Part shown: positions 36,809-55,588 of the stretch, piece after piece
How positions within the stretch are numbered: position 1 is the first letter of the stretch
Layout of the letters: every line of letters begins with the position of its first letter
Virus record (IMG/VR): IMGVR_UViG_3300036985_003045
Source: a virus
Taxonomy: Duplodnaviria; Caudoviricetes
Reading direction: 5' to 3' (one strand)
DNA: 64,000 bases
The notes under the pieces: generated by a model
The model's input: the letters and a program-made list of their open reading frames with translations, nothing else
What the model was told of the DNA's origin: nothing
Databases searched by the model: none
Made by a program: the position numbers and the translations under genes

Positions 36809-37846
36809 TTAAAAGAAATCCTCGAGTGTAGATTCTTTTTGTTTAATACCTTTATTCCAATAATCAAACCTATGATTTACTGGTGCAAGATGTACAGACT
36901 TTGGTTTTTCCATACATGTTTGCATGAAATCAATTGGACTATATGTATAGAATTGTTCAGGCCATTTAAAAACTGACCAGTTATTTCTGTTGCACATTTC
37001 TATTAATGCATCGGTAAAATATTGTCTTATGCTATCTCTTTCTTGTCTAGAACCAAAGAATGGAGTACCTTTATACCAACCTGTTTTAGGCAATTTACGT
37101 GTCTCATCTTCTATAGGTAAAGGTAACACAACTTCAATATTCTTAATGTTTAATACCTTTATTTGATTCTCATATTCAGATACTAAATCATCTACATATT
37201 GGGTTGGGTTTTCTTCTCGACAGATATGATGTCTAATATCAATATTGCCATAATAACATGTAAGATGAGTAAGGTTTTCTTTTAATCCTGGCATGAAATC
37301 ATCTATTTCTTTCGTAATAGTTTTTCTTAATACACCTGCTAGAGTTCTACCATCTTTACGAAATGTCATATATCCAGGTTGATATGCAGAAAATGAATGA
37401 CTATCACCTAATACTAATTTAGTTGTAACCACAGGATGCAACATTTCAGGTATAGAGTTACAAACATTTGATAATGCATCCCAATCTATGGCAGACCAAT
37501 ATTCATCTGCATTCTTAAGTCGATTCTTACATAGTCTACCATAATCAGGCATAGGAATATCAAGAGATACTAATGACTTATTCTTATGTGTTAGGATTCG
37601 TTCGAAGAAGACAGCATTTTCTTTAGTTGCTCCTCCAAAGAGATTAAGAGTTTCTCCATCTTGTTCCATAGAATGATATAAAAATATAGTATCATAATCA
37701 TCCCATGACTCTCCATGGAGAACATCGATCTCAATATTCAAGGCATCTTCAAGTTGGCATTTTCTGAGCATAGCCCAACCAAATTTATGAGAATATTGAG
37801 ATGATGTTAATTTACCAGGTAATAAATCTAAAGCATATTTTTTCAT
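36809..37846 (-). CDS. SGNH/GDSL-like protein with C-terminal clamp-type motif
   Basis: LGDSHS, YYGNIDIRHH, SVHL; SH..GW and LNLFGG blocks; ends STLEDFF. Confidence 0.6.
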   Translation of the reverse strand: MKKYALDLLPGKLTSSQYSHKFGWAMLRKCQLEDALNIEIDVLHGESWDDYDTIFLYHSMEQDGETLNLFGGATKENAVFFERILTHKNKSLVSLDIPMPDYGRLCKNRLKNADEYWSAIDWDALSNVCNSIPEMLHPVVTTKLVLGDSHSFSAYQPGYMTFRKDGRTLAGVLRKTITKEIDDFMPGLKENLTHLTCYYGNIDIRHHICREENPTQYVDDLVSEYENQIKVLNIKNIEVVLPLPIEDETRKLPKTGWYKGTPFFGSRQERDSIRQYFTDALIEMCNRNNWSVFKWPEQFYTYSPIDFMQTCMEKPKSVHLAPVNHRFDYWNKGIKQKESTLEDFF

Positions 37847-39012
37847 TAAAAGAAGGAGTCCAAGGTTGCAGTATTTTGTTTATTATATACTAATTGCTCC
37901 GCTTTGTACAACTCTTTTTCAATATCAATAGTTCCTATTCTTGCTACTTTGCGGCGTTCAATAGCTTTTGTATCATTGCGAATCTTGCAAAAGATCCCAT
38001 ACTGGCACATGCCGACCTCCGAACCGTACGTCATCATCTCAGTCTGGTCTTTGCTTAGAATCTTATTATTGTTATGATCAAGTACATTATGGAAATGTTC
38101 ATGGATCTTAATATCACCGAACCCAAAGAACTTCTGATTATGCCTGAACCATACAACTAAATCTCCATTTGTTATTTCCTTTGATGATGCCTTTGGGAAT
38201 AGTAACTTAAGAGTGTATTGCGCTCCAGGACCGGGTTTAACAAAGTTCTCATCATTATCCCATGATAGTTTTGGATTCACTGAATTAGAAGTAGTACAAT
38301 GGTATCCATAATAAGATCCAATACCTTCAATCTCAGTTAATATTTTAAAAGTATTAGAAGCAGCACCTGATTGTTGCATTCTATTAAAGAATCCTTGTTC
38401 TCCTAATCCTGCTACCCAATCCATGATATTACCTGGATGTACTTTATCTGCATTAGGTCCAAATCTTTGTAACTGATACTTGTTCGCTGCACCAAATAAA
38501 GAAGTACGTAACTCAGTTGAACCATAAATTGGTAACTTAATTGATGCTGCTAACTCTAGATTCTTCCGTACCCGGGCACGCTCACCTGTGGTAAAATAGT
38601 TCTCAAAATCAACATGTGCAGTTTGTGGATCATTATTTCTAGTAGCAATCTGATGGATACCTCTAGCTCCATAAAAATGCGAGATGATTGTATTACCAAT
38701 CTTATTATGAACCGAGAGTTTATCATCAGGTAATGATACTATATTCTTCATAATGTATACCATACGATCATCACAGGTAATCATTGGATGGAAGTACTCA
38801 GTATCTGGATTTAATGCATACTCTGTATATTCATACTTTTCTGTTAATCCATATTGCCATTCAGTTCTTTTATTAACCTGTTCAACAAAATATTTAAAAT
38901 CAAGAAACTTCTCAACATCACATAAAGAAAAATACTTTACTAAAGGATAATCAACATTATTAGATACAAAGTTATTAGCTTCTATATACTCTTTACCTAC
39001 AGCATCTATCAT
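37846..39012 (-). CDS. aGPT-Pplase / amino acid:DNA transferase-like protein
   Basis: DDR..YI, HhH-like IEGIGSYYGY, DE.FVKPGPGA...L..LF, E..MCQY; ends ATLDSFF. Confidence 0.65.
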   Translation of the reverse strand: MIDAVGKEYIEANNFVSNNVDYPLVKYFSLCDVEKFLDFKYFVEQVNKRTEWQYGLTEKYEYTEYALNPDTEYFHPMITCDDRMVYIMKNIVSLPDDKLSVHNKIGNTIISHFYGARGIHQIATRNNDPQTAHVDFENYFTTGERARVRKNLELAASIKLPIYGSTELRTSLFGAANKYQLQRFGPNADKVHPGNIMDWVAGLGEQGFFNRMQQSGAASNTFKILTEIEGIGSYYGYHCTTSNSVNPKLSWDNDENFVKPGPGAQYTLKLLFPKASSKEITNGDLVVWFRHNQKFFGFGDIKIHEHFHNVLDHNNNKILSKDQTEMMTYGSEVGMCQYGIFCKIRNDTKAIERRKVARIGTIDIEKELYKAEQLVYNKQNTATLDSFF

Positions 39013-39404
39013 TTAGATTCCCATTCAGTATGGCGAACATTTTCCTTTTCAGTTAAATCATGTTGCATGTACACAATATTAATATGTGGAACTATTTTTT
39101 TAATCATTTCTATTTGTATTGGATCATCTTCAAAATGAATGCCTATTTTATATCCTTGCTCTTCTAATTTAATAATAGTATTTCCCTTATGAATACCGGA
39201 AGACTCTCTACTCTTATTATCAAAAGACAATTCATTAAACATTACTTTGTTATGAATACCTTTTTTGGTAAGCATGCCAAGAGTTTCTTCTGATTCTTCA
39301 AAAGATCTACCGGTTATAATAATATCGTTAAGACCGGGGTAAACACCTCCATATTTACCCATGTATATGACACCATCTATATCAAAAGTATTAATATTAT
39401 TCAT
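39009..39404 (-). CDS. capless HAD phosphatase
   Basis: FDIDGV, ITGRS, HKG, FEDD. Confidence 0.8.
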   Translation of the reverse strand: MNNINTFDIDGVIYMGKYGGVYPGLNDIIITGRSFEESEETLGMLTKKGIHNKVMFNELSFDNKSRESSGIHKGNTIIKLEEQGYKIGIHFEDDPIQIEMIKKIVPHINIVYMQHDLTEKENVRHTEWESK

Positions 39405-40674
39405 AATCTGTTTGACCTGCTTGGAAAGTATACGGTAAATCCTTTGCTATAGGTTTATTTTCTATTAATTGAGGTTTAGTTAACTCAGTCAATATTCGTC
39501 TTGCTAAGGCGTCACACTCAAACTTTGCATCTTCTGTTTTCAATTGCAAAGGCGGAGTTTTTTGAGTCCATGCTGAAGGACCTCTTAAGAATCCAACGAT
39601 ACCCATTTCAGAAGCAACTTTACAAAATCTAATTGCCGATATAACTACACCACCAGAGTTTGGACTATCTTGTACAGATAATCTAGCAGTTAATTCATAT
39701 CGAGCTCCGCCAAAACCATAACCAATAATATCAATATTACATACTTTATTATCAGAACCTACATAAGTACCACCTGGTTTTTGTTGAACAGTTAATGAAG
39801 GACCTGCATATAATGTCATACCTGAATATGGTTCATCACGTACAATATTCTGACCTTTCAAAACATTCTCTTTTGAGATATGTTTATTATGTAATCTTTC
39901 TTGCTTTGCCATATTCAAGAAGTCAGTATTAGCAGTTCTTCCTGTACGGATATGCTCTTGACCTTGTGTAGAACCGCAGGCCATATTTAATTGAATATGT
40001 TGAGTTACTAATATACCTGAATCTATCATAGCACCTTGAAGAACTTCAGATAATCTAGAAGCACCCCAAGCAGATCTCATATCAGAACCAACAATTGTTA
40101 GACCTTTATCGATAAACTTCTGCTCAATAATCTGAGTTTCTTTAGTGGCAATAATAGTTGGGATACAATTAACAAAATGTACACCTGCTTCTAATGCTAC
40201 ATCAAGATAAAATCTAGTAGCCTTTTCTGAACCTACTGGAAGATAGTTAATAAGTACATCTACACCAGTTTTCTTAACAATCGATACGATATCATCGTAT
40301 GATTTTGCCGCTTCTGCACCAGTCCTAAATGAAACATTCTCTGGATAATCAAGCATATGCTCAGCAACACCATCAAGTTCAGGACCTGAAAATACTGTTG
40401 CATCTTTTGGAACACATGTATTATCTATTTCAGATACATGATCCATTGCGCAATTTGGTAAAGCTCTTAAAGCTTCAATTAAGGATTTATTTACTTTACG
40501 ACGATCGACATCAAATCCTACTACGAATTCCATATCTTCTGATGTATATCCTCCAATATCTGGATACATGAGTCCAACTTTATCGTGTGGATTTTGAATA
40601 TAGTATTGAACTCCTTCAACTAACGACTTAGCGCAATTACCTACGCCGATGATACCAACTTTAATTTTTGACAT
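39397..40674 (-). CDS. ino1: myo-inositol-1-phosphate (inositol-3-phosphate) synthase-like protein
   Basis: GVGNCA Rossmann, FDVD..KV, NYLPVGSE.A..FY, N.DFLNM, DSPNS.GV, KTPP. Confidence 0.9.
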   Translation of the reverse strand: MSKIKVGIIGVGNCAKSLVEGVQYYIQNPHDKVGLMYPDIGGYTSEDMEFVVGFDVDRRKVNKSLIEALRALPNCAMDHVSEIDNTCVPKDATVFSGPELDGVAEHMLDYPENVSFRTGAEAAKSYDDIVSIVKKTGVDVLINYLPVGSEKATRFYLDVALEAGVHFVNCIPTIIATKETQIIEQKFIDKGLTIVGSDMRSAWGASRLSEVLQGAMIDSGILVTQHIQLNMACGSTQGQEHIRTGRTANTDFLNMAKQERLHNKHISKENVLKGQNIVRDEPYSGMTLYAGPSLTVQQKPGGTYVGSDNKVCNIDIIGYGFGGARYELTARLSVQDSPNSGGVVISAIRFCKVASEMGIVGFLRGPSAWTQKTPPLQLKTEDAKFECDALARRILTELTKPQLIENKPIAKDLPYTFQAGQTDYE

Positions 40675-40749: not shown

Positions 40750-41208
40750 TTAATGCATTAATAAATTATATTGTACTCCGGCTTCTTTGAACATATTTTC
40801 AGTGTCAACCCAAGAATCCTGCCAGTTATCTGGAACTTTCTTATCTCCAGTCCACATAACTACTCTTTTTACTCCAACTTGAATAATACCCTTTGCGCAT
40901 TCAGAACAAACTGGTAATCCATACACATATAATGTAGATCCATTTAGTGATACTCCATTAAATGTGGCATTATATATTAGATTCATTTCTGAATGTACAA
41001 CTAATTTATACTTGGTTGGTTTATGCTCATATCTTTCTACTGCATCTAGGATTCCACGTGGGAATCCATTATATCCAGTAGAAATAATATTCTTTTTGAT
41101 AGGATCTACTGCTATAGAACCTACTTTAGTTGATGGATCTTTACTCCAATTAGAAACGTTTTTAGCCATTTCTAAGAACCGTATATCCCATTTAGTAATA
41201 TCAGACAT
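40750..41208 (-). CDS. cd: dCMP deaminase
   Basis: SKDPSTKVG, GYNGFPRG, HSEMN, PVCSECAK. Confidence 0.9.
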   Translation of the reverse strand: MSDITKWDIRFLEMAKNVSNWSKDPSTKVGSIAVDPIKKNIISTGYNGFPRGILDAVERYEHKPTKYKLVVHSEMNLIYNATFNGVSLNGSTLYVYGLPVCSECAKGIIQVGVKRVVMWTGDKKVPDNWQDSWVDTENMFKEAGVQYNLLMH

Positions 41209-41232: not shown

Positions 41233-41275
41233 GATCTATTATATCATAGTTTCTAGAAATGTAAACATTTATTTT
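41233..41275 (-). promoter_or_regulatory. early promoter cassette upstream of cd-ino1 operon
   Basis: GTTTAC 41261-41266, 17 nt, TATAAT 41238-41243. Confidence 0.85.
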
Positions 41276-41916
41276 ATTAAGTGAAAATGTTTTTCATATA
41301 CATGCAAACTAGTGCAGTTCCACATAATAGTACCTACTTCTACATCAAGATCCTTAGCAAGTTTTTTCAAAACATATTCTTGCCAATAGTAATCATTCTT
41401 ATATCCAAACACGACATCATTTGATCTCATTTGTACATTAGCATGGAGTTTACCATCTCTAATCATATAACCTACAGCATTAGTGCAGATGAAATCAGAC
41501 ATACCATGTTTATTATAATCAGTCCAAATAGAAGGTCTATTATAAACCATAGTAGCACGTCTAGAGAAAGGATTCTGTTTCAATTCATTTAATACATTTT
41601 TATATTGGTAACCATTCTCTTCAGAGAAGATTAAGTATCCATAGTTACTATTAATACATCCACCTCCACCAGAAATTGCTAACCAGATAGCTGGAGTTTC
41701 ACCGGGTATATCATGTACATTTAAAGATTGAGATTCATACCATTCAACTTCGCGTTTAGCATAATCAGTATTTAATGTACCAAAAATTACAGGTTCATCT
41801 GCATTAAAAGATGCACCCATAATCTCAAGCATTTTACAACCAGTTTTATCGATTACAAAATCAGCATGCATTAATTTATATAAGAACTCTTTTCTTATAT
41901 CTTTAACATTAAGCAT
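41269..41916 (-). CDS. thymidylate synthase-fold dCMP hydroxymethylase (gp42-like)
   Basis: INSNYG, SRRA, DFICTN, MRSNDVVFGYKNDYYWQ with Asp at the dCMP-specifying site. Confidence 0.82.
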   Translation of the reverse strand: MLNVKDIRKEFLYKLMHADFVIDKTGCKMLEIMGASFNADEPVIFGTLNTDYAKREVEWYESQSLNVHDIPGETPAIWLAISGGGGCINSNYGYLIFSEENGYQYKNVLNELKQNPFSRRATMVYNRPSIWTDYNKHGMSDFICTNAVGYMIRDGKLHANVQMRSNDVVFGYKNDYYWQEYVLKKLAKDLDVEVGTIMWNCTSLHVYEKHFHLIK

Positions 41917-42352
41917 TTTTAGAACCTCTTTTTACTGGAATTTCTTCTGCTTTTCCATTAAAATCAACAATAATTACCGGTTCAACTCTAAATGTAGTGG
42001 GAATTAATGGCGAAGTTGAATCATTAGGTTTATTAAAGATATCGCGATCTGGTCTTTGACCTGGGACTTGGCCACGCATATACGCAGCAAGAAATGATGT
42101 ATAGTTAATAAGATCTAATGCAGAATCTTCGACTGATTCATAATTGACTTTACCACCTGCTTCCATAGTTTCAAGTACTGATACCATTCTTAGATACTTG
42201 CCATTAATAGTATCAAGAATAGACCACACACCATGAACATAATAGTCTGCTTGTTGAACTCTAGAAACTGTGTTATTATAATCCTGGCCTTTTTTCTCCT
42301 GAATTTCTGCAGCTTCTAATAAAATATTTGCTGAAGGTCTTGTGTATGTCAT
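41909..42352 (-). CDS. nucleotide-modification-associated domain protein (DUF1599-like)
   Basis: KKGQDY, K..R, ESVEDSALDLINY. Confidence 0.7.
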   Translation of the reverse strand: MTYTRPSANILLEAAEIQEKKGQDYNNTVSRVQQADYYVHGVWSILDTINGKYLRMVSVLETMEAGGKVNYESVEDSALDLINYTSFLAAYMRGQVPGQRPDRDIFNKPNDSTSPLIPTTFRVEPVIIVDFNGKAEEIPVKRGSKNA

Positions 42353-42354
42353 AA

Positions 42355-42801
42355 TTATTTCTCAATAAATGTTGATTTTGAAAGGGATCTCATTTTTGTT
42401 GCTAATTCAGGATATTCATCTTCATGACATAATTCCATTTGTGATATAGGAAATCCTATCATGTTATTGCCTGCTCTAGTTGTATATGTAATGTACTTTT
42501 CTCTATTTGTGCATTTCCAAATTCTAATGTAATTATTTGCACGTTTAACACCATATTCTACAAAATATAAATTGTCAACATTCATACATTTAGTTTTTTG
42601 ACTTACGTTAATAGTAAGATAACCTATTCCAAATATGTCATATCTACATTGAGTCTTTACTTCAAATGTCTCACCATTTGGAAGAACACCATCTTTTTTC
42701 ATATCATACTTATTTTCAGATAAAGTACCGCCTTCTTTATATACAAACCAGTTTTCACCTATATCACCTAATTCTTTACTATTTTTTTGTTGTTCAGTCA
42801 T
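42355..42801 (-). CDS. PD-(D/E)xK-type endonuclease
   Basis: GDIGE ... KKDG ... FEVKTQ. Confidence 0.6.
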   Translation of the reverse strand: MTEQQKNSKELGDIGENWFVYKEGGTLSENKYDMKKDGVLPNGETFEVKTQCRYDIFGIGYLTINVSQKTKCMNVDNLYFVEYGVKRANNYIRIWKCTNREKYITYTTRAGNNMIGFPISQMELCHEDEYPELATKMRSLSKSTFIEK

Positions 42802-42830
42802 AATATAATTCCTTAATAATTGATTTGTAG

Positions 42831-42870
42831 GATCTATTATAACATAAATCCAGGTAATGTAAACATTTTT
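42831..42870 (-). promoter_or_regulatory. early promoter cassette upstream of modification cluster
   Basis: GTTTAC 42859-42864, 17 nt, TATAAT 42836-42841. Confidence 0.8.
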
Positions 42871-43832
42871 TACATATTTTTATAAGCAAATTCAATAGCT
42901 CTACTTGCTTCAGTATTCAAAGGACGTTTGGCATAGATATTAGATGTTTCTCTATCTAACTCTAAAATTAACTGAACAATTTCATATTCAGTTATAGGAT
43001 ACTGCTTCTTAACTGCGAAGCACGCAATTGATGTCATGAGTTTATAAATCATCGAGTATCGACCAGAACCATCCATACCTGATATAGATTTGTACTCAGT
43101 GACCAATTTATGGTTAACAAATGGACAATCTTTATATGAATTCCAATTATAATCTCTTTTAGTTTCTTCTAACTTAGCCTTTCGATGACTAATAACCTCA
43201 TCTCTTAAATCATCCGGTAATCTATCAATGAATGAATTACTATTAACTGGTGCAGTGAATTCATATTTACATATTAACTCCGTAGGATCAACCAAGGTAC
43301 CACGATTGCTAAAGATAAAGTTATTAGCACCAGGGTATTGCGCAGGGACGTAATACATTCTACTGAGGTCTTTAGTTTGGAGATCTCCCATGCATCCAAA
43401 TTCAGAGTTGAGAGCGAACCAGAAGTGTTTGATTTCACTCGACTCAACCAGTCGAGTAAGTGGGAACACGAGTCTAAACTTCGGGAATGCAACAGTGCTG
43501 CTTGCAGTACTATAACAAATGTAATCCCAATCACCAAACCGTCGATAAAGCTCATCTTCTAAGTTTCCTTCAAATTCATGTGTATCTACATCGATAGCTG
43601 CCCATTTACCCCAATTTATTACATTAGCATTGGCTCTAGTAGTACCAGGAGTATAGGTTGCCGGTGAAATAAGAGGCGAAGTCTTTTTAAGGTATTCACC
43701 TCTCTTTGCTTTGTACCCATTTAAAGTTGAGAGATGATATAACGATCTCTCAAACTCTTCAAATGTTTTAAAGTCAACGCGAGAATCAGTTTTATTATCA
43801 AAGATACTCTTGAAAACCGTGAGTGAATACAT
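42870..43832 (-). CDS. AEP / primase-polymerase-like protein
   Basis: LISPA.Y, AIDVD, YST.S, KFRLVFPL, DLSRMYYVP. Confidence 0.75.
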   Translation of the reverse strand: MYSLTVFKSIFDNKTDSRVDFKTFEEFERSLYHLSTLNGYKAKRGEYLKKTSPLISPATYTPGTTRANANVINWGKWAAIDVDTHEFEGNLEDELYRRFGDWDYICYSTASSTVAFPKFRLVFPLTRLVESSEIKHFWFALNSEFGCMGDLQTKDLSRMYYVPAQYPGANNFIFSNRGTLVDPTELICKYEFTAPVNSNSFIDRLPDDLRDEVISHRKAKLEETKRDYNWNSYKDCPFVNHKLVTEYKSISGMDGSGRYSMIYKLMTSIACFAVKKQYPITEYEIVQLILELDRETSNIYAKRPLNTEASRAIEFAYKNM

Positions 43833-43834
43833 TA

Positions 43835-44236
43835 TTAATCAAACACCTGTGCAAACAATCCAACATTGTCAACATGGGTAGGGGCAGTCCAACCTTCAGG
43901 TTTTAGTAAATCCGGAAGTCCCCATGGATTAGGTCGACCTTCTTTAATACCAACTTGTTTTGCTAAATTAGCATCTAATACTCTATTCCATGCAGTATAT
44001 GCATCTACTTCATATGAATCTAAAGTACCAATAGCAAATACAACTAAATCTATTAGAGCATCAACTGCATCATCGGCTGTTTTAGCTTCTTTTAACTCAT
44101 CCAATTCTTCTTGTAAACAACCTATACGGAATGACAAAAACTTAAGAAGTTTGTCATTATCAAAGTTTCTAACAACTTCATTAACACCAAAACCTTCATG
44201 CATATTTGCAATATCATTTACCCAATTATTACTCAT
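43835..44236 (-). CDS. MazG/PRA-PH-like all-alpha NTP pyrophosphohydrolase
   Basis: EELDEL, DALIDL..FA.G, N..K, LLKPEGW..P. Confidence 0.8.
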   Translation of the reverse strand: MSNNWVNDIANMHEGFGVNEVVRNFDNDKLLKFLSFRIGCLQEELDELKEAKTADDAVDALIDLVVFAIGTLDSYEVDAYTAWNRVLDANLAKQVGIKEGRPNPWGLPDLLKPEGWTAPTHVDNVGLFAQVFD

Positions 44237-44253
44237 ATTATCTCCAATTAAAA

Positions 44254-44290
44254 ATCTATTATATCATATTTTCCTAGAAAGTAAACCCTT
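44254..44290 (-). promoter_or_regulatory. early promoter cassette overlapping gp41 stop
   Basis: GTTTAC 44281-44286, 17 nt, TATAAT 44258-44263. Confidence 0.75.
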
Positions 44291-45653
44291 TTGTTTCAAT
44301 TTGTGACTTTTTATTTCTTTCAACCAAGAATTGAGTCGCAGGTTGACCACTTTCAGAAATATCTTTCTGCGCAGATTCTTCAACATCATATAGTTTCATT
44401 CTAGATCTATCAACTCCTATAACAAATCGTTTATAATAACCAGGATCGGCATATCGATTCTTAAGTTGTTTAACCATTATTTGGTTTAAGTTTTCAAGTT
44501 CTTCTGTAGCAATTAAAGCAAACATCATATCTGCCGTTGCAGGTAAACCAAACGATTCTGAAGTATCAGTTAATTCTACATCAGTATTACCAAAACCACC
44601 TCTAGTAGTTTGAGTCGCACTTAATAATGGTACATCATATTCAACTGCAAGACCTCTAAGTTCTTCAGCTATTGATTTAACATAAGTGTATGAATTAACA
44701 CCTGCACCATTTTTAATACGTGAAGAGCAACAGATATTTAGATAATCGATGATTATCATATCAGGTTTGAAGTTACGTTTAATCTTTAGTTCTTCAAGCA
44801 ATGCCTTAAAATGACCTGAATGTGCAGTTGAAGTAGGATACTGTTTAACTATAAGTTTACCGGAGGTCTTCTTAATCAATTTGTTAATACGATTATTATA
44901 TGTAGGTAAATCTATTGTAGCCATCTCATTCATATTCATATTAAGAAGATTAGCATCAATACGTTCGGCAATTCTCTCTTCGGCCATTTCCATAGTGATA
45001 TACAAAACATTCTTATTTTGTAGAAGACTAGAAGCAGCAACATGACACATGAATAATGATTTACCTACGGCAGTACCAGCCAATATGATATTCAAAGTCT
45101 TTTTAGATAATCCACCCTTTGTAATCTTATTAAAGATATCGAGATCAAATGGGATCTTTTCTTCTACTCTATGATAGAAATCATAACGTTCTTGATAATC
45201 TTCAAGGTAATCATGACCTACCGAAGAATCAAAACTAACTGCTAATGCATCTGATAAAAGACTTGGTATAGCATCTTCAGTTTTGTCTTTATGTTTACCT
45301 TCTACTATATCATAAGCATCGATAATCGCATTAATAACGGCTCTATTTTTACAGAACTTTTCTGTATTATCATAAAGCCATTGTTCATTATCAGTTTTAA
45401 ATGTCAACTCATTGATATATTTTTCAATATCCTGTAATTGGTTTTCACGTAATTCAGATCTATTACTAATCTGAATTGCCAATATATCAAGAGTTATTGC
45501 TGAATTATATTGATCAAAAAAGTTAATAATTTCTTGTGAAATTACTTTCTCAAATTGATCATTAAAATATTCAAGTTTAATGAAAGGAATGACTTTTCTT
45601 GCGTATGTCTCATTATGAATCAAGTTGCTCAATATAGTCTGTGTTATCGTCAT
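44274..45653 (-). CDS. 41: replicative DNA helicase gp41
   Basis: AG..VGKS Walker A, ITMEMAEE.I..RIDAN, IIIDYLN, SESFGLPATAD, LKNRY; GGAGGA RBS. Confidence 0.95.
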   Translation of the reverse strand: MTITQTILSNLIHNETYARKVIPFIKLEYFNDQFEKVISQEIINFFDQYNSAITLDILAIQISNRSELRENQLQDIEKYINELTFKTDNEQWLYDNTEKFCKNRAVINAIIDAYDIVEGKHKDKTEDAIPSLLSDALAVSFDSSVGHDYLEDYQERYDFYHRVEEKIPFDLDIFNKITKGGLSKKTLNIILAGTAVGKSLFMCHVAASSLLQNKNVLYITMEMAEERIAERIDANLLNMNMNEMATIDLPTYNNRINKLIKKTSGKLIVKQYPTSTAHSGHFKALLEELKIKRNFKPDMIIIDYLNICCSSRIKNGAGVNSYTYVKSIAEELRGLAVEYDVPLLSATQTTRGGFGNTDVELTDTSESFGLPATADMMFALIATEELENLNQIMVKQLKNRYADPGYYKRFVIGVDRSRMKLYDVEESAQKDISESGQPATQFLVERNKKSQIETKGFTF

Positions 45654-45960
45654 CAATTCCTCCGGTATATGTAATGTCATTTCTAGATAATTGGTGCACG
45701 ATTAACTCTATAAGAAAATCACCAATATATTTTTCGAACTCATCTACATTATATTCTATTCCAGCATTATTGTAAACCTCATAATCAAATTTTATTGGGC
45801 AATCTTCTCCTTCTAAAGCATCTTCAGGAAATTCAACTTTACCATAACTAAAAATTATACCTTCATATGGAGCATCTGTCAACTTAATTGCTGAAAGACC
45901 TTCTTCATTATGGTGTTCTACTATTTTATGTCCAACTAAAAACTTAAAATCATCACTCAC
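45613..45960 (-). CDS. conserved T4-like protein at the gp40 position
   Basis: Between uvsX and 41; GIIFSYGKV, IGD.LIEL. Confidence 0.55.
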   Translation of the reverse strand: MSDDFKFLVGHKIVEHHNEEGLSAIKLTDAPYEGIIFSYGKVEFPEDALEGEDCPIKFDYEVYNNAGIEYNVDEFEKYIGDFLIELIVHQLSRNDITYTGGIDDDNTDYIEQLDS

Positions 45961-47041
45961 TATCTTCTCCTAAATCATCCTCAATTAATGCCAATTCTTC
46001 TTCAATAGATTCATCTGATATAATAGCACCATTTGAAACTTGATAATTCTTTTTAATCCATTCTTGGAAACTTACTGTTGATATAATAGGTAACCAAAAG
46101 TCTTTAGTATCCGTATCTTTTATACGATACTTTTTATCTTCTACTTCGCCTGTTTCAGTGTTAACTTTAGAATACCAACCATTACTTGGTTTAACTACAT
46201 GACCGGATTCTAACGCCATTTCTAATAGACCTGACCATTTGCTAATACCACCTTCAAACTTAACAGTAACTGGTATTTTAGACTTTTCACGTGACTGTCT
46301 AGACTTTTCTACATTGATAATGAAGTTATAACCAGCCAATTCAGTTCCGTCTTTCTCTTGTTGTCTACCAAGTATAAAAATGTTATCTGCAGAAAGGTAT
46401 ATACCTGATCCACCAGACACTACTGGCTTACTATACATTTCTTGTGTCATATAGATATGGTTCACTGCAACCATAGGAATATCATACTTAACTAGATATG
46501 GAGTAATCATTCTAAAGATAGATTTCATTTGACGAGCTCTACTCATATCTTGAGTTGATTTACCATCAATAGCATCATCCATTTCTTTCTTTGATGACAT
46601 ATTACCAAGTGAATCTATAATGAATATAACTTTATCACCGCGTTTAATTTCTTGTAATTGGTGCATTACATCAAATTTGAACTCTTCCATATTCATAATG
46701 GGTGTATGTACTACGCGTTCTTTATCAATGCCAAGAGAATCGAAATAAGATTCAGGTGTACCAAACTCACAATCATAGAATACTAGTACAGATTCTGGAT
46801 ACTTATCCATATATGACTTAGCAAGGATCAAAGAGAATAATGACTTGAAATGCTTACTTGGTCCACAGAATAATGTAAGACCTGGAGTTAATCCACCATC
46901 AATTCTACCGGATAACGCAATATTGAGAGCTGGAATTGGGGTTGTTACCATATCTTTCTTAGTAAAGAACTTTGAAGATGATAATATTGAAGAATCTTTA
47001 ATCGTACTATTCTTTTTAATTCGTTCTAATAATGCACTCAT
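45953..47041 (-). CDS. uvsX: UvsX RecA-like recombinase
   Basis: LNIALSG, GPSKHFKS, FYD.EFG, IDSLGN, DMSRA, GG.G..LSAD. Confidence 0.95.
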   Translation of the reverse strand: MSALLERIKKNSTIKDSSILSSSKFFTKKDMVTTPIPALNIALSGRIDGGLTPGLTLFCGPSKHFKSLFSLILAKSYMDKYPESVLVFYDCEFGTPESYFDSLGIDKERVVHTPIMNMEEFKFDVMHQLQEIKRGDKVIFIIDSLGNMSSKKEMDDAIDGKSTQDMSRARQMKSIFRMITPYLVKYDIPMVAVNHIYMTQEMYSKPVVSGGSGIYLSADNIFILGRQQEKDGTELAGYNFIINVEKSRQSREKSKIPVTVKFEGGISKWSGLLEMALESGHVVKPSNGWYSKVNTETGEVEDKKYRIKDTDTKDFWLPIISTVSFQEWIKKNYQVSNGAIISDESIEEELALIEDDLGEDSE

Positions 47042-47069
47042 TAATTACCTCATTTGTTAATTTATTCAA

Positions 47070-47103
47070 CTATTATATTATAAATTATGAATATTGTAAA
47101 CTA
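47070..47103 (-). promoter_or_regulatory. early-type promoter upstream of uvsX
   Basis: GTTTAC 47096-47101, 18 nt, TATAAT 47072-47077. Confidence 0.6.
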
Positions 47104-47106
47104 TTA

Positions 47107-47664
47107 TTATGGATTATTTTTAGAATGCGGTACATCGAATACAAAGGTAATTCTTATACAATCACCTAAGTTTTCTGTTCCATGTTCTAACTTATTATTA
47201 AACCAAAGTAATGTTCCAGGTTCTACAATAACAGACTCATCTCCTACTGAATATCGATAAGTTCCTTGAATTGATAAATGATACCTATCTCTTGTAAGAT
47301 AATAATCTCCAATATCAATATGTTTGCCTACAATACCTCCAATAGGTAAAGATAGAAATCCACATCGACTATGGGATTTAAAATGTCGTTTCAAAAATCC
47401 TACAATTTCAGTATGTCTTTTATATGCAGGAGTCTCTATACAGATATCTGTATCGCCAACATATTGATCAAGGTTTTCTACTCCGCCCATTACTAATTGA
47501 AGTACTCCTGCTTGAATTTCTGGAAAACCTCTATCAAGCATAGACATTGATCCTTCTAACGTCTTTTGAGCACCCCAATCATTTGGGTATTTTTCTAATT
47601 GTTTTAATATCTTTGAGACATTAATTCCAGTTTTGATTATTCTAATATTATCCAAAGAAGTCAT
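47107..47664 (-). CDS. 2OG-Fe(II) oxygenase (aspartyl/asparaginyl beta-hydroxylase-like)
   Basis: HID facial triad, RYHL, WFNNKLEH, RITFVFD. Confidence 0.8.
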   Translation of the reverse strand: MTSLDNIRIIKTGINVSKILKQLEKYPNDWGAQKTLEGSMSMLDRGFPEIQAGVLQLVMGGVENLDQYVGDTDICIETPAYKRHTEIVGFLKRHFKSHSRCGFLSLPIGGIVGKHIDIGDYYLTRDRYHLSIQGTYRYSVGDESVIVEPGTLLWFNNKLEHGTENLGDCIRITFVFDVPHSKNNP

Positions 47665-50152
47665 CCAAGTTTGCCGAGTTATTTAATTTCCAACCAATAG
47701 GTTCAAGCATAATTTGCAAAGGGTTTATAAATACTTTTTCAAATTGTGTATCATAATCAATATATTTTTCTAATCCAAATTCTTCCGGTATTTTATCTTT
47801 GATGGATATTACATTTTGATTAATGGGATTTGGAGTTCTCAAGAATACTACTTTAACTTTATCACTATCAAGTATTTTTTCATACGTCTTTGATAGTTTA
47901 TATTTGTCTATTAAATGATTATACCAAAGAGCTCCGCGTACATGCATGGGAGTACCTTTAGCAAATACATTAGTCTTATCACTAAACTTCTTAAGACCAT
48001 TAATACCTGAAGGTCGACCGATACTTGCTGAGGCAAGAGATTCAAATTCAATTTTAAAGTCATTGACATACTTATTGATTTGATCTTGATCACCATCCAA
48101 TATAATATTCAATGAGTCTTTTAGTTTTTTCCTACATACCTGAGGTGTAGAAGACTTAACTAGTTCTAAACCGGTTACTTTTAGTTTAGGTTCTGCATAT
48201 TGAACACCTTCAGAATTATACACTCGAAGAAAGTATCTTTTCTTGGCTACAAATACACCTACATCGGCTAGTACTTCACGCTTCATTTTCATTTTCTGTT
48301 CATAGGCATTCATATAGTCTGCCATTTTTATATATGAACGATCAATTAATGGTTCAACTATTTTAGCACAAAATGTATCCATGAATGCTATCTTTTGATC
48401 GACAGATTTATCTTTACATACAGATTCTACAACTGCTTCTAAAGTTACATAATTAGAATCTGTATCACCGGCAATAACATATTGGATATCTTCAGTTTTA
48501 TTTGCTTTATTAAAGTACTCATCCAACATAATAGCATTCCATCTATTGGATAACTGACCTGATAGCGTAATACTTTCTGCCATTCTTAAGTCATAATACC
48601 TGAACCATGAATTACCTATTGCGCCATACACACTGTTCAATGCTTCTTTTACTGCTAATTGCATAGCATTAGAGGAACTTTGAGCATTCTGATATTCTTT
48701 ATTGTACTTATCAGATTCAAGTAACTGCTCATACTTAAGCATTTCATTTTTATAATTACTACGGTCGGCATATACCTCTTCCATAATTTCAGGTAGGAAG
48801 CCACGAACATCTCGACGATAACACCAACCATTTGCAGTTAGAGATAAATTCTGCTCTTTAATATAGAAATTATCAAATGACTTTGATAATAGTTCATCTA
48901 CAGTACAAGGGATTCTAGTATCAGTAAGAGTCTCAGGACTAATATTGTATTGCATAATCAAATGTGGATATAGAGATGCCAAATCGAATGATGCAATGTA
49001 CTTATGCTTACCTACTACTGGAACTTGAACATATGCACCTTCATACTTACCAGTTTTGATTGAATTCTTCTTTGGTGGTATAACAATGTTCTTATTCTTT
49101 AATCGATTATAAATGATTGAGTCCCACATATTTACTGGTCCATACACTTCATCTAGATTGATTTTAGAATAATATGCAAGTGATACCGCAATCTGAATCA
49201 GTTTAAGTTTTTCATCTAACTTATCGACAAGTCTAACGTCATGTCTATTATAGTCTACAAATAAAGACCAATCTTTTGTATAAAAGTCTTTGAATGAATT
49301 ATAAGGATTTTCAAGTTTCTTTTCACCAAGAACTGTATTGGCAACAGTATCAAGTTTCATATCATCTACTTGAATTTTACCAAACTTAGCAAATAGTTCT
49401 TTATAATCGAGCATGGCAATGCCCTCGATATTATAACCTATCTTTTCATTACCATTCTGATCTTTATACAATCGTTCACGAACGCGACCCCAAGGAGATA
49501 GTTTATTAATGATTTGATCATCTATAACTCTTGACATTCTACGAATTAGATATGGAAAATCATATCCATTTGTATTCCAACCAGTTACAATATCAGGATA
49601 GTTTAGAGTCCAATGAGTCATGAACTCACGTAATAAATGTGCTTCACTTTGGCATTTAATATATGGACCATCATCATTTACCTTGTCATAAGGTCTTGTA
49701 CCAAAGGTTACGATATCAGTCGAATTTCTATTCTTTACTGATATAAGTGTGATCTCTTCTATAGGATCTTTAATCACCTCATCAATACTTAGACCATGTT
49801 CAGTAGTAGTCTCAATATCAATAGTTGTGATATTCATTACTGATTGGTCATATTCTATTTCACCTGGATAATATTCAGATATGAATTGCTTTGTGAAGTC
49901 TTGCATCCCATATATTTTGAAGTTCTCTACTTCACCATAACTTTTGATAAACTCTTTAGTGTCATGGATACTACCAGGTTGGATTTCACCTACATATTCA
50001 TTAGTAAGAGTCTTCCATTTGGTTGGAGTCTTGGATGAGACAAATAAGGTAGGTTTGAAGTCAACCTTGGTATGGATTCGTTTGCCATCTTCATAACCTC
50101 GAAGTAAGATGTTATTAGATACTTGTAGTACACTTGTATAGAATTTAGACAT
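47648..50152 (-). CDS. 43: family B DNA polymerase gp43
   Basis: DIET ExoI, WN...YD ExoII, YN.HD ExoIII, DLASLYP, K..LNS.YG, GDTDS; ends NLDDFFG. Confidence 0.97.
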   Translation of the reverse strand: MSKFYTSVLQVSNNILLRGYEDGKRIHTKVDFKPTLFVSSKTPTKWKTLTNEYVGEIQPGSIHDTKEFIKSYGEVENFKIYGMQDFTKQFISEYYPGEIEYDQSVMNITTIDIETTTEHGLSIDEVIKDPIEEITLISVKNRNSTDIVTFGTRPYDKVNDDGPYIKCQSEAHLLREFMTHWTLNYPDIVTGWNTNGYDFPYLIRRMSRVIDDQIINKLSPWGRVRERLYKDQNGNEKIGYNIEGIAMLDYKELFAKFGKIQVDDMKLDTVANTVLGEKKLENPYNSFKDFYTKDWSLFVDYNRHDVRLVDKLDEKLKLIQIAVSLAYYSKINLDEVYGPVNMWDSIIYNRLKNKNIVIPPKKNSIKTGKYEGAYVQVPVVGKHKYIASFDLASLYPHLIMQYNISPETLTDTRIPCTVDELLSKSFDNFYIKEQNLSLTANGWCYRRDVRGFLPEIMEEVYADRSNYKNEMLKYEQLLESDKYNKEYQNAQSSSNAMQLAVKEALNSVYGAIGNSWFRYYDLRMAESITLSGQLSNRWNAIMLDEYFNKANKTEDIQYVIAGDTDSNYVTLEAVVESVCKDKSVDQKIAFMDTFCAKIVEPLIDRSYIKMADYMNAYEQKMKMKREVLADVGVFVAKKRYFLRVYNSEGVQYAEPKLKVTGLELVKSSTPQVCRKKLKDSLNIILDGDQDQINKYVNDFKIEFESLASASIGRPSGINGLKKFSDKTNVFAKGTPMHVRGALWYNHLIDKYKLSKTYEKILDSDKVKVVFLRTPNPINQNVISIKDKIPEEFGLEKYIDYDTQFEKVFINPLQIMLEPIGWKLNNSANLDDFFG

Positions 50153-50711
50153 GTTTTCCCTTAATCAACATCATTACATCATAACAGATATCGTGGACTG
50201 GATGGTGCTTGATTACTTTATCTTTACTAAAGTCTTCAACTTCGCAATATCCATTGGATGAACCATACATAATATCAATTGCAGTTCTAAGATCTCTATA
50301 GTTATTATATCTCATAATTGGTTCGGTGGATACTGCTTTAGATAAACTATCAAACATTGGTTGGTCCATTGATCCTCTAACCCAGATGGTTTGATTGTCT
50401 GGATTTGGGAACATGTTAATATAGTCTTTTACTTTTTGAATAGCTTCTTCAGCTTTTAGGTCGTCGGGTTTTGGATGCAGACTAATATCTTGGAGATATT
50501 TGTGCTGCTTAGACCACCATTCTAGAGTACCTTTGTCCATTACTCTATTAAGGCGTTTGACTTGATCTTTGACATCAAGTTTTAGGAACAAAGTTCTGTT
50601 CAATAGTTTATCATAATCTAACTCTTCAGTTGGATCAAAATAAACTATAGCAACAGATAATACGACAGAGTTGGATTCAACTCCCAAACTTTCTAAATCA
50701 AAACAATACAT
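50145..50711 (-). CDS. DEDDh 3'-5' exonuclease (DexA/Rv2179c-like)
   Basis: DLESLG, WW.KQ, RGS.D, RDLRT, HHPVHD. Confidence 0.8.
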   Translation of the reverse strand: MYCFDLESLGVESNSVVLSVAIVYFDPTEELDYDKLLNRTLFLKLDVKDQVKRLNRVMDKGTLEWWSKQHKYLQDISLHPKPDDLKAEEAIQKVKDYINMFPNPDNQTIWVRGSMDQPMFDSLSKAVSTEPIMRYNNYRDLRTAIDIMYGSSNGYCEVEDFSKDKVIKHHPVHDICYDVMMLIKGKHV

Positions 50712-50730
50712 TTCACCTCCAATTTATATA

Positions 50731-50768
50731 GATCTATAGTATCATATAATCTATAAAATGTAAACCAT
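50731..50768 (-). promoter_or_regulatory. early-type promoter upstream of exonuclease-gp43
   Basis: GTTTAC 50760-50765, 18 nt, TACTAT 50736-50741. Confidence 0.6.
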
Positions 50769-50958
50769 TATAAAAATAATATTTAAGAATGTGTTGGAAC
50801 GTATAATCTACACACCATACTTTGGAATAGTTCAAATGCTTCCTTTGGTGTTGCTCCACTTCCTTGGCAATGGAATGAACCAAATTCGCAATACCATAAT
50901 CCATTTTTATAGTAAAATTTATGTCGCATTATTATAAGTTATTAATATTAAACATTAT

Positions 50959-52299
50959 TTATTTAATTTTAATAGAACTATCAGCAATTTCTTTATCATT
51001 TCTTACTTCAAGAAAGATAGGAAGGAATAATGACTCTTCACCATTTGTATTTTTGATTCTAGCATTATACTTTACAGATATGATTTTGCCATAATAATCT
51101 GATGGAGGAGCATTTCTTTGTTCATCAGTAAATCCAGAACCAACATATACCTTCAATAAACCATCGGCAGATTCACAGCATAATGAACCTATCATATCAG
51201 CATATTTACCAGTACCACCTATTACAGAAACTACTTTCAAATCACAATCCAATTCTGCTTTGAACTTGATTTGACCTTTGGATCTTTTGTTTTCCCATAA
51301 TGAATTAGGATCTTTAAGAATGATGCCTTCTTGATTTTCATCAAGATAGTTTTGAAATATTCTTTGAGTTTGTTCTAAAGAATCTACCTCAAAAGTTTCT
51401 ACTAAATCAAGTTTCCTTAATTTAAATTTACTTAATTTATAAATAAGATTTTTTAATTGCCTAAATCTATAACTGTAAGGTTGGTCACATTTACCAGCAA
51501 TGAAATCTTGATATGGAATTTGATCCCAAAGAGTAGCAAATACTCTATCTGCTTCTTCTTTTGATATAGTTCCCTTTACTGCTTTGTTTAGAATACCATT
51601 ACCAGTTTGACGATCACATATCTTACCGTTTGAATCTGTTTCAACTGTATCATATACCAGAAGTTCACCATCAAACACAGTGTCTTTATGATCTGCTAAT
51701 TCGATAAATTCTTCTTCAAGACTACCTAGTAATGAAATCTCTTTACCACTTCTAGAACGAAATTCAACCGTACCATAAAAATCATCATCGAATTTAACTA
51801 TGGCATTAAACCTCATACCATCTTCTTTCTTTTGAACTATGGCAGGGAATGTAATCTTATCAACTAATTTCTGCTCGAAAGGAGAACATAACATACAAGG
51901 GAACTCTGGTATTAGATTCTTCCAGACTTTATTGACGGTAGAGGTAGAAACACCGCACTTCAGATCTTTTTGGATAATTCTCTCGACGACCTTGGCGTTG
52001 CTCTCGGATACATTCTCAAGGACGAATACGAGGTGAGAAATAGCATTGTTGCCAGTGATCTTGCGAGATGCTAACTGTTCAACCAATTCTTGGATAGCCC
52101 AATCGAGGTTGTCGTCGCTCAGGAGAAATGTGCTTGGAGTGTACGATGGGATCTTGCGTTGGTAGAACTGAGTGAATGGATCGTTAGCAAGACGACATAC
52201 CTCTTTCAGAAGATCGTTATCCTTGTGCTTGGTAAGCAAATCGATCTTGAAGTTTCTAGAGTTGTTCGATTCGAGTTCTTGTAGTATTTCTAGTATCAT
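50959..52299 (-). CDS. 30: ATP-dependent DNA ligase gp30
   Basis: KEDGMR motif I, SRSGK, FDGEL, EGIILK, KRS, VGSGF; start trimmed to ATG 52299. Confidence 0.93.
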   Translation of the reverse strand: MILEILQELESNNSRNFKIDLLTKHKDNDLLKEVCRLANDPFTQFYQRKIPSYTPSTFLLSDDNLDWAIQELVEQLASRKITGNNAISHLVFVLENVSESNAKVVERIIQKDLKCGVSTSTVNKVWKNLIPEFPCMLCSPFEQKLVDKITFPAIVQKKEDGMRFNAIVKFDDDFYGTVEFRSRSGKEISLLGSLEEEFIELADHKDTVFDGELLVYDTVETDSNGKICDRQTGNGILNKAVKGTISKEEADRVFATLWDQIPYQDFIAGKCDQPYSYRFRQLKNLIYKLSKFKLRKLDLVETFEVDSLEQTQRIFQNYLDENQEGIILKDPNSLWENKRSKGQIKFKAELDCDLKVVSVIGGTGKYADMIGSLCCESADGLLKVYVGSGFTDEQRNAPPSDYYGKIISVKYNARIKNTNGEESLFLPIFLEVRNDKEIADSSIKIK

Positions 52300-52325
52300 T
52301 ATGTATGTTTCTCTCAATAATTAAT

Positions 52326-52370
52326 TTATGGGTCTATTATATACTGTTTTCTGGGAATGTAAACGTTTAT
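52326..52370 (-). promoter_or_regulatory. early promoter cassette
   Basis: GTTTAC 52359-52364, 17 nt, TATAAT 52336-52341. Confidence 0.85.
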
Positions 52371-52576
52371 ATTAAATTAATATCAATTGTTTCACCAACT
52401 CTGAAGATTCTAACTTTATACTTCATTTCAAAAAATCGTTTTTCATCTCTAGTCAAAACTGCATTATAACCTTGAGCGCATTTCTTAGCATCTTCTTTCT
52501 TGTCGAAAGATTTTACCATAGTAGTACCTTCTTCGCCATTTGCACCATTAAAACTATAAACACCATATTTAAACAT
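52367..52576 (-). CDS. hypothetical protein
   Basis: ORF track; stop inside cassette. Confidence 0.6.
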   Translation of the reverse strand: MFKYGVYSFNGANGEEGTTMVKSFDKKEDAKKCAQGYNAVLTRDEKRFFEMKYKVRIFRVGETIDINLI

Positions 52577-52578
52577 AA

Positions 52579-52770
52579 TTAAACCTCTTTGTAGTAAGAA
52601 GGGTCGTCAAAAACGACTTCATTGATAATCCAAGCAATGATAGAATCTCTATCAGTTGGATCAATATGACAAGGGCGAACCCCATTAACATCTTTGAACC
52701 AGTCAGAGAATACTCCAAATAGTTCATCGATTGGCATTGCTTTGCATTTTTCAACGATTTTGTTGCTCAT
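52579..52770 (-). CDS. hypothetical protein
   Basis: GAGGA leader. Confidence 0.6.
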   Translation of the reverse strand: MSNKIVEKCKAMPIDELFGVFSDWFKDVNGVRPCHIDPTDRDSIIAWIINEVVFDDPSYYKEV

Positions 52771-52920
52771 AATATATAATTCCTCAATAATTTAAATGTT
52801 ATCCAATGCAAGGATAACTGTTGGGATGATTAACTGAAACATAACTGGTATGCTTAGTAGTAAATCTGTTACGGGTTTTAATATTTCTTTATTCATAATA
52901 TAGTATCTCAATTAATTAGT

Positions 52921-52968
52921 TTATGGATCTATTATATCATACTTTCTAGAAATGTAAACGTTTATTTT
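52921..52968 (-). promoter_or_regulatory. early promoter cassette
   Basis: GTTTAC 52954-52959, 17 nt, TATAAT 52931-52936. Confidence 0.85.
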
Positions 52969-52971
52969 CAA

Positions 52972-53586: not shown

Positions 53587-53626
53587 TCTCTTTACTTCTT
53601 TTATTAACATTTACTTTATTTATCTT

Positions 53627-55307: not shown

Positions 55308-55588
55308 ATCCAGAATATATTAAATTCTTTTCTGACACATTAACTCCAATACTTGGTAGTTGTGTACTTGGAGCATTCATATTTACAGCATTAAAATTTG
55401 TTTTGGGCGATGTTATTACTTCAGTTAAAACATTAGCAAGTATTGTAATGGCTTTAGAGAATAGAGTTAAAACTTGTTCACATGAATTAATTAAAATTGA
55501 TGTAACTATATCATCAGTATTAGGACTTAGACCAGATTTGGATAGAATATCCAGAATGGATGGCAAAAATGATGCTAGGAGAGACTAA
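55304..55588 (+). CDS. single-TM coiled-coil membrane protein (paralogue 2)
   Basis: PILG, TM, ENRV....ELIKID. Confidence 0.7.
   Translation: MNPEYIKFFSDTLTPILGSCVLGAFIFTALKFVLGDVITSVKTLASIVMALENRVKTCSHELIKIDVTISSVLGLRPDLDRISRMDGKNDARRD

Follow-up and report, generated by a model that had tools for sequence, protein, structure and literature searches.

Is the hypermodification of phage DNA physically coupled to the replisome? This question is raised by a locus in the virus record IMGVR_UViG_3300036985_003045 (Duplodnaviria; Caudoviricetes), of which a stretch of 64,000 nucleotides, hereafter the window, was analysed. On its minus strand, two adjacent genes encode putative DNA-modification enzymes, one with an SGNH fold and one all-helical. 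Both proteins end in a short peptide of the kind that also ends the DNA polymerase gp43 of the same phage. The three tails are as follows.

36809..36832, minus strand: tail of the SGNH-fold enzyme, encoding STLEDFF and the stop codon (open reading frame, ORF, ending ..KESTLEDFF); candidate sliding-clamp-binding peptide.
37846..37869, minus strand: tail of the helical PUGT/glycosylase-like enzyme, encoding ATLDSFF and the stop codon (ORF ending ..NTATLDSFF); candidate sliding-clamp-binding peptide.
47648..47671, minus strand: tail of the DNA polymerase gp43, encoding NLDDFFG and the stop codon (ORF ending ..SANLDDFFG); reference clamp-binding tail.

These coordinates and peptides, already given in a preliminary description of this DNA, proved exact on re-reading the minus strand. 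Its remark that no other ORF of the window has such an ending also holds, as a scan of the ORFs of at least 60 amino acids (aa) for L-x-x-F-[FMLYI] at most 2 residues from the end gave only these three. In a set of 97 non-overlapping gene-like ORFs of the window (19,268 residues), L[DE]xFF is found nowhere but at these three C-termini. From the residue composition, about 0.004 ORFs ending in L[DE]xFF are expected by chance, and about 0.0005 for the stricter [ST]L[DE]xFF ending. As each copy uses other codons (ctc gag gat, ttg gac tcc and ttg gat gac), the tails are not a DNA repeat. The observation of shared tails is real and far from chance.

The polymerase tail gives the reference for the two others. 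The gene belongs to a minus-strand T4-type replication module, which in the window comprises gp43, UvsX, gp41 helicase, DNA ligase, ribonucleotide reductase (RNR) and an RNase H-type exonuclease.

47648..50152, minus strand: T4-type family-B DNA polymerase gp43, 834 aa, with 46-47% full-length identity to cyanophage gp43.

The window gp43 matches the T4 and RB69 gp43 structures, and its last 120 residues align end to end with those of T4 gp43 (..ASLDFLFG) and RB69 gp43 (..ASLFDMF). The hydrophobic/acidic C-termini of gp43, gp55 and gp33, carried on unstructured linkers, are established and interchangeable ligands of the clamp gp45 (PMC2988020; PMC7892883), in agreement with the preliminary description. 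As in this T4/RB69 motif, for which an RB69 gp45-peptide structure is available (1B8H), the window tails are extreme C-terminal hydrophobic/acidic peptides following a variable linker, and the anchors are common: [ST]-L at positions 1-2 and a hydrophobic residue followed by Phe at positions 5-6 (SLDFLF in T4, SLFDMF in RB69, TLEDFF and TLDSFF here). Unlike gp43, gp55 and gp33, the carriers are here DNA-modification enzymes of three unrelated folds, the third being found in relatives (see below).

Other clamp ligands offer a looser likeness. Clients of PCNA carry the PIP box (PCNA-interacting peptide), Qxx[LIM]xx[FY][FY], which is found also in the eukaryotic DNMT1. The spacing of L-E-D-F-F and L-D-S-F-F is the h-x-x-a-a of the PIP box, and the logic would be the same as for PIP-box clients including DNMT1, namely a DNA-modifying enzyme tethered to the clamp behind the fork; in relatives of the window, the tail is even found on a C5 methylase. 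In contrast to the PIP box, the tail is strictly C-terminal, the clamp would be the gp45 trimer rather than PCNA, and the conserved Gln expected three positions ahead of the Leu is missing, its place being taken by E (K-E-S-T-L), T (N-T-A-T-L) and S (N-S-A-N-L). Clients of the bacterial beta clamp likewise carry a short hydrophobic peptide, the motif QL[SD]LF, from which the window tails differ by their spacing and by the absence of a Gln; distant homologues and their polymerases end in ..EQ-x-ALF or ..SLF, which resemble this motif.

Which clamp would be available to these tails? No gp45 was found in the window, either by tblastn with the gp45 of a relative or by Pfam/PHROG annotation of about 40 ORFs, and the record nearest to the window (G001) has no clamp. 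The IMG/VR contig G007, whose polymerase is 95% identical and which shows about 91% nucleotide identity over window positions 42087-53628, encodes a gp45 (phrog_223, E 3.5e-66; RB69/T4 gp45, E 1e-20 to 1e-22), as well as gp44 (phrog_168), gp62 (phrog_225), gp46 and gp47. In another relative, G002, gp45 and the loader lie 2-3 kb downstream of the modification cluster. By comparison with such relatives, the window's own genome would also encode a gp45 clamp and its loader. In G007, the late sigma factor gp55 ends in ..YSPLEDFYS and gp43 in ..NLDEFFG; therefore, two textbook clamp clients carry the tail class of both enzymes.

The preliminary description had made its reading depend on conservation of the motif, and this conservation is observed. 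In samples of 120 homologues per enzyme (HMUDK_hel family for the helical enzyme, SGNH-fold family for the other), a hydrophobic/aromatic C-terminal tail is kept by about 85% and about 90% of the proteins, respectively, the background of the same loose classifier on whole phage contigs being about 20-30%. The linker preceding the tail differs freely in length and sequence, and the tails are conserved at 40-95% identity, also in a contig of 55% G+C.

Moreover, the tails fall into lineage-specific classes, [ST]L[ED]xF[FML], ..LLEF/..LIEF/..LIVF, ..[ST]LF and ..I[VI]xF, and the polymerase on the same contig has the tail class of the enzymes. At least five distinct tail classes behave alike. Examples are given below.

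L032: polymerase ..SLEDFFV; enzymes ..TLEDFFE, ..SLEQFM and an internal ..SLMDFLE.
G013: polymerase ..SLKAFF; enzymes ..SLKNF and ..LSKYF.
G012: polymerase ..SIVQF; enzymes ..KIVTF and ..QIIQF.
G017 to G028: polymerase ..STSLF or ..ASALF; enzymes ..INSLF, ..QNALF and ..TQALF.

In L034, the tails are ..LDSLFE and ..LDELFK. With one representative per class, the true polymerase-enzyme pairing has the top score of 720 permutations. Over 34 distinct loci, the two enzyme tails of the same locus score 7.44 (mean BLOSUM62 over the last 4 residues), against 0.41 +/- 0.96 after shuffling, and 0 of 5000 shuffles reach 7.44; the samples are mutually related and were picked after seeing the data, so that these numbers illustrate co-variation rather than prove it. 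Absence is coordinated as well, since in L144 and L156 the SGNH-fold protein and the helical protein both lack a hydrophobic tail.

A third type of enzyme is concerned. In G002, L007 to L015 and L032, the gene after the enzyme pair encodes a C5 cytosine DNA methylase (PF00145, E 1e-16 to 1e-21), which ends in ..SLEEFFA, ..TLEAFI, ..SLESFF or ..SLEQFM. Thus, the tail is a portable module on three unrelated DNA-modifying folds.

A whole-contig scan of G014 found ..LLEF only at the end of the two enzymes. In G022, ..[ST]LF endings occur on a polymerase half, on the SGNH-fold enzyme and on a 147-aa protein of unknown family (55653-56096; L233:17653-18096) ending in ..KINSLF, and a FEN/RNase H-type exonuclease of the same contig (phrog_107; 70460-71680; L234:13460-14680) ends in ..LDGGLF. 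The 147-aa protein and the exonuclease are possible further clients of the presumed clamp of that lineage. The RNR small subunit of G022 ends in ..DDLF, which was taken as its own subunit-binding tail. Structural proteins of G002 ending in ..SFFI or ..DFFG (baseplate, tail tube) were also set aside as clamp clients, having neither the Leu anchor nor acidic residues.

It may be added that in many of the distant carriers of the SGNH-fold enzyme (G017, G019, G021-G024, G027 and G028; L207-L224) the family-B polymerase is split into ORFs of about 470 and 400 aa lying several kb apart, and that the ..SLF tail is then found only on the C-terminal half. A split polymerase occurs also in Aeromonas phages 25, 31 and 44RR.

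In AlphaFold 2 (AF2) models, both window tails lie outside the folded domains and are not packed on them, with a predicted local distance difference test (pLDDT) score that decreases over the last 10-15 residues. In the SGNH-fold enzyme, for which the overall pLDDT is 95.6, the last 15 residues fall to 78, then 63, and a short one-turn helix is seen at 341-344. In the helical enzyme, the tail comes after helix 364-380, with a short one-turn helix at 384-387 and a pLDDT of 70 in the last block. Co-folding of residues 345-388 of the helical enzyme with the G007 clamp trimer gave a score of 0.60, versus 0.29 for the best of 3 controls, and the score was 0.00 when the clamp was replaced by an unrelated protein. 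The runs had at least 82% of contacts in common and a partner pLDDT of at least 52. Of 80 solved complexes, 58 attain the mark used in this assay, as do 2 of 110 mismatched pairs; only 7 of the 80, together with both passing mismatches, have scores no higher than 0.60. The co-fold, a check proposed in the preliminary description, ranks the clamp-tail pair above its controls and lends weak support; it shows likeness and not binding.

Taken together, these data suggest that the six C-terminal residues, [ST]-L-[ED]-x-F-F in both enzymes, would form a T4-type clamp-binding peptide on a flexible linker, an epitope of the same kind as that used by gp43, gp55 and gp33 for docking on the gp45 trimer. 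The tail of each enzyme would occupy the hydrophobic site of a gp45 protomer, the clamp being loaded on phage DNA that is under replication or has just been replicated. Docking would raise the local concentration of the enzyme on unmodified 5-hydroxymethylcytosine (5hmC) DNA, in a race with host nucleases, and post-replicative 5hmC modification would be coupled to DNA synthesis in space and time. We give this clamp-tether reading a probability of roughly three in four (about 0.77), the physical binding of the tails to gp45 and the action of the enzymes on nascent DNA being inferred from the features described above. The preliminary description placed the enzymes at the fork. Conserved, co-varying, gp43-like tails agree with an action on nascent DNA; the term 'at the fork' is too narrow, since a clamp remaining on DNA that has just been copied would do as well. 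In any case, the device is a known one, here put to a new use.

Several points weigh against the clamp-tether reading. The clamp gene lies outside the window, and the clamp used in co-folding is that of the 95%-identical relative. As the RB69 gp45-peptide complex has been solved (1B8H), the co-fold pass may be memory. The relatedness of the loci used for co-variation, mentioned above, belongs here too. Furthermore, 10-15% of the homologues have no tail at all; therefore, tethering is not needed for catalysis as such. In the lineages with ..SLF, ..LLEF and ..IVxF tails, searches with the gp45 profile and with DnaN TIGR00663 found a clamp in 0 of 17 records, most of them partial. Finally, only one phage DNA-modifying enzyme had been reported from experiment to interact with gp45, the T4 alpha-glucosyltransferase (alpha-GT), and this result has not been reproduced. 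In this case, the idea is the same, an hmC-modifying enzyme riding on the phage clamp, and the interaction is attributed to one in vitro study (Sommer et al. 2004, as cited in PMC6024577). It could not be recovered in pull-downs, in vitro or in vivo, in which C-terminal His tags were used (PMC13216743), and the precedent invoked in the preliminary description is thus now contested. Compared to T4 alpha-GT, the evidence in the window phage is of another nature, a conserved and co-varying motif. No paper describing clamp-binding tails on phage hypermodification enzymes was found in the literature, and the thymidine-hypermodification literature examined does not mention the clamp. We know of no report of a gp43-like epitope on T4 alpha-GT.

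Other explanations of the tails have to be considered. They could dock on another partner also met by the polymerase, either in the replisome or in the host, such as the host beta clamp, the single-stranded-DNA-binding protein (SSB, gp32) or a helicase loader. Co-variation indeed shows a common partner and not its identity, and the ..Q-x-x-LF or ..SLF tails of distant lineages resemble the beta-clamp motif, on contigs where no phage clamp gene is found. However, the window motif has neither the Gln nor the QL[SD]LF spacing, and the tail of the window polymerase is homologous, position for position, to the gp45 epitope of T4 and RB69. The same tail is present on G007 gp55, a sigma factor known as a client of gp45 and without a role at SSB or beta. 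The null score of the unrelated protein in co-folding points in the same direction, and a partner other than gp45 appears unlikely. A role of the tails in joining the enzymes to each other, or in folding back on their own domains, with a convergent likeness to the polymerase, is less probable still. It would account for the very close match between the two enzyme tails and would suit proteins whose fusion, seen in a complete 225-kb phage and in Aeromonas phages, shows that they work together. Yet it would leave unexplained the parallel change of the polymerase tail and of the G007 gp55 tail, as well as the presence of the same tail on the unrelated C5 methylase; in addition, the tails have low pLDDT and no packing on the domains, and the fused form still has one terminal tail.

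Since bacterial proteases use C-terminal hydrophobic tags, it may also be imagined that the tail is a stability or turnover signal (C-terminal degron, protease tag) of early/middle proteins. But a tag for host proteases would not be expected to co-vary with the polymerase from lineage to lineage, only 3 of about 97 window proteins have the tail, all of them DNA-acting, and clamp binding has been demonstrated for the homologous tail of T4. This makes a degron highly improbable. As for chance or composition in an AT-rich genome with common Phe codons, the window does have a G+C content of 32%, and FF is encoded by 'ttc ttt' in all three copies; the comparison of three endings found with about 0.004 expected, the lack of any internal occurrence, and the retention of the motif over a wide range of identities and in the 55% G+C contig lead us to reject this explanation.

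What are the two enzymes that carry the tails? The first gene of the pair in transcription order encodes the helical protein.

37846..39012, minus strand: all-helical enzyme, 388 aa, with a Pfam HMUDK_hel domain (PF18723, E 2.6e-11).

The PF18723 match covers residues 170-294, versus profile positions 118-237 of 281, and the AF2 model (pLDDT 92) is all-helical. The Pfam name refers to the 5-hydroxymethyldeoxyuridine (5hmdU) DNA kinase, in which the kinase domain is of the P-loop type. The HMUDK_hel domain is common to both, but the 388-aa enzyme has no P-loop kinase domain: no further Pfam or NCBIfam match was found in it, and its AF2 model has no alpha/beta nucleotide-binding domain. PUGT-type amino-acid:DNA transferases (aGPT-Pplase-like) are characterised by a two-bundle helical fold with a base-flipping groove. 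In the VIA-wide structure comparison, the best solved fold is 8Z2M, PaMx11 gp46/PUGT, a 5-PmdU glycinyltransferase (Z 9.5, 228 aligned residues, root-mean-square deviation, rmsd, 4.1), followed by helix-hairpin-helix (HhH) DNA glycosylases (Z 5-9); for helical proteins, a VIA Z below about 13 is suggestive, not decisive. Foldseek against the PDB gave no match at E <= 0.001, and PUGT has only about 10% identity to the 388-aa enzyme. PUGT flips its target base out of double-stranded DNA and acts on modified deoxyuridine (PMC11472151); the PUGT literature examined mentions no clamp tail. Judging from the modelled fold, the helical enzyme is probably a DNA-binding, base-flipping transferase or transferase subunit. 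In contrast to the systems of PUGT and of the 5hmdU kinase, the cluster here has a dCMP-type hydroxymethylase leading to 5hmC, not 5hmdU.

Two variations of the helical family were observed. In homologues P0049 and P0058, an FkbM-type methyltransferase domain (PF05050) is fused N-terminal to HMUDK_hel, which seems to be a general DNA-presenting module for varied catalytic partners. Long forms of 480-560 aa (L144, L156, L163, L164, L196, L202; P0048, P0050, P0053, P0055) lack the terminal motif and are extended by a further C-terminal domain, about 130-170 residues long, with a K/R-rich ..G[RK]xY.. stretch at its end; residues 340-527 of P0053 gave no Pfam match. The SGNH-fold partner of these long forms has no hydrophobic tail in L144 and L156, and ends in ..VVFSF in L163, L164, L196 and L202. 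The extra domain may be an alternative means of staying on DNA.

The second enzyme is encoded immediately downstream.

36809..37846, minus strand: SGNH-fold enzyme, 345 aa, phrog_13881 (unknown function; PHROG E 6.8e-71).

It consists of an uncharacterised N-terminal alpha/beta domain (residues ~1-135), an SGNH/GDSL domain (~136-337), a 9-residue linker and the tail. The SGNH fold is assigned by Foldseek with a probability of 1.00. In VIA, residues 136-337 have GDSL esterases as best match (Z 12.6, 166 aligned residues, rmsd 3.1), ahead of PatB and OatA, two O-acetyltransferases of peptidoglycan, at Z 10-11; no VIA-wide row covered the N-terminal domain. Over 76 sequences, G147, D148, S149, H150, G200, I202 and D203 are invariant, and N201 is conserved in at least 90%. 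The enzyme has thus, in common with SGNH/GDSL hydrolases, PatB and OatA, the fold, an invariant GDSH block with the serine of block I, GDS(L/H), and a conserved GNxD block with the asparagine of block III, GxND. E313 and H319 are also invariant over the 76 sequences, but their spacing is not that of DxxH, the block V motif of the catalytic histidine. This apparently non-canonical final block, the extra N-terminal domain, the clamp-type tail and the location in a DNA-modification cluster distinguish the 345-aa enzyme from SGNH/GDSL hydrolases.

The helical and SGNH-fold proteins form one polypeptide in phrog_17781, which includes the 795-aa ORF233c of Aeromonas phage 31, and they are also fused in one complete 225-kb phage; therefore, the two enzymes work together. 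At the nucleotide level, blastn of both enzyme genes against cultured phages gave no match. The fused protein of Aeromonas phage 31 has a single tail, ..SLDGLFAI; in the same phage, gp43B ends in ..NLFDMFDI and gp55 carries ..NLDNFYEDEPET. Phages 44RR, 31 and 25 of Aeromonas possess gene 42 and no glucosyltransferases, and the fate of their hmC was left open (PMC2993671). The fused SGNH-helical protein of these phages is a good candidate and a tractable model.

Upstream of the enzyme pair, in one operon, four further genes bear on the substrate.

39009..39404, minus strand: HAD-like phosphatase, 131 aa; weak Pfam Acid_phosphat_B match, phrog_415.
39397..40674, minus strand: divergent inositol-3-phosphate-synthase-like enzyme, 425 aa; PF01658, E 8.8e-9.
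40750..41208, minus strand: dCMP deaminase; PF00383, E 6.6e-18; phrog_174.
41269..41916, minus strand: T4 gp42-type dCMP hydroxymethylase, which makes 5hm-dCMP; PDB 1B49, E 3e-79 over residues 3-214.

The match of the hydroxymethylase homologue to thymidylate synthases is only E 1e-13 or weaker. Because the thymidylate-synthase homologue of the cluster is a dCMP hydroxymethylase, the substrate would be 5hmC DNA rather than 5hmdU DNA. A thymidine hypermodification through 5hmdU, prompted by the Pfam name of the helical domain, was rejected in view of this dCMP-type enzyme, and judging from the gene content the substrate base of the cluster is probably 5-hydroxymethylcytosine in DNA. A separate thymidylate synthase is encoded at window positions 20612-21448 (phrog_85, weak thyX match). 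Two MazG-like nucleoside triphosphate pyrophosphatases (41909-42352 and 43835-44236) could fill the dCTPase role of gp56.

The inositol-3-phosphate-synthase-like enzyme matches TIGR03450 with E 8e-64, but with 216 bits against a cut-off of 638, and the HAD-like phosphatase gene is kept beside it in relatives. In Aeromonas phage 31, the gene directly upstream of the fused SGNH-helical gene encodes a Na+/solute symporter (PHG31ORF234c, L123:1226-2749; PF00474, E 7e-53); in the window, this place is held by the inositol-phosphate-synthase-like and phosphatase genes (39009-40674). It may be that the window phage makes, and Aeromonas phage 31 imports, one small molecule put on 5hmC. That the appended group is a small polyol-type molecule is a speculation.

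These elements lead to a further model, in which the gp45 trimer would be a platform for a split enzyme adding a phage-made small molecule to 5hmC by a non-glycosyltransferase route. Neighbouring protomers of the clamp, behind the polymerase, would each receive one subunit by its own tail, helical and base-flipping in one case, SGNH-fold and catalytic in the other; in relatives, the C5 methylase would dock too. The added molecule would be made via the inositol-phosphate-synthase-like enzyme and the HAD phosphatase, whereas Aeromonas phages may import it via the Na+/solute symporter. The trimeric nature of the clamp, and the fusion of the two enzymes in other phages, make such a 'toolbelt' arrangement plausible; as a whole, the model nonetheless remains tentative and rather doubtful.

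The replication region shows other particularities. In G007, uvsX (3884-6154, L119; compare window 45953-47041) is present as two ORFs of 231 and 287 aa, split by an insertion of about 1.1 kb that carries a 262-aa ORF without a window homologue; this is probably a mobile intron or a homing-endonuclease insertion. Overlapping the end of gp43, a gene at window 47107-47664 encodes a 185-aa cupin/Asp-Arg-hydroxylase-like protein (PF05118, E 5e-6; phrog_32420), which is kept in G007. On the plus strand, positions 54876-59115 encode CsgG (PF03783, E 3e-54) together with two proteins, one having curlin repeats and the other a FecR domain. This curli-secretion block sits inside the replication region; it is absent from G007, and CsgF and CsgG are found in the relative L034.

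The question of a physical coupling between phage DNA hypermodification and the replisome thus receives a sequence signature, conserved and co-varying with the polymerase tail, at a time when its sole experimental claim, T4 alpha-GT on gp45, is contested. Enzymes of three unrelated folds carry it, and it occurs in many uncultured phages as well as in the cultured Aeromonas phages 31, 44RR and 25, for whose hmC DNA no further modification enzyme is known; the question thereby becomes directly testable. More generally, matching C-terminal tails to that of the polymerase could pick out new DNA-acting or DNA-modifying enzymes in phage genomes. The finding also points to an undescribed modification of 5hmC that does not involve a glycosyltransferase. 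If the platform model were true, these phages would possess a clamp-coupled, non-glycosyltransferase route to a new hypermodified cytosine.

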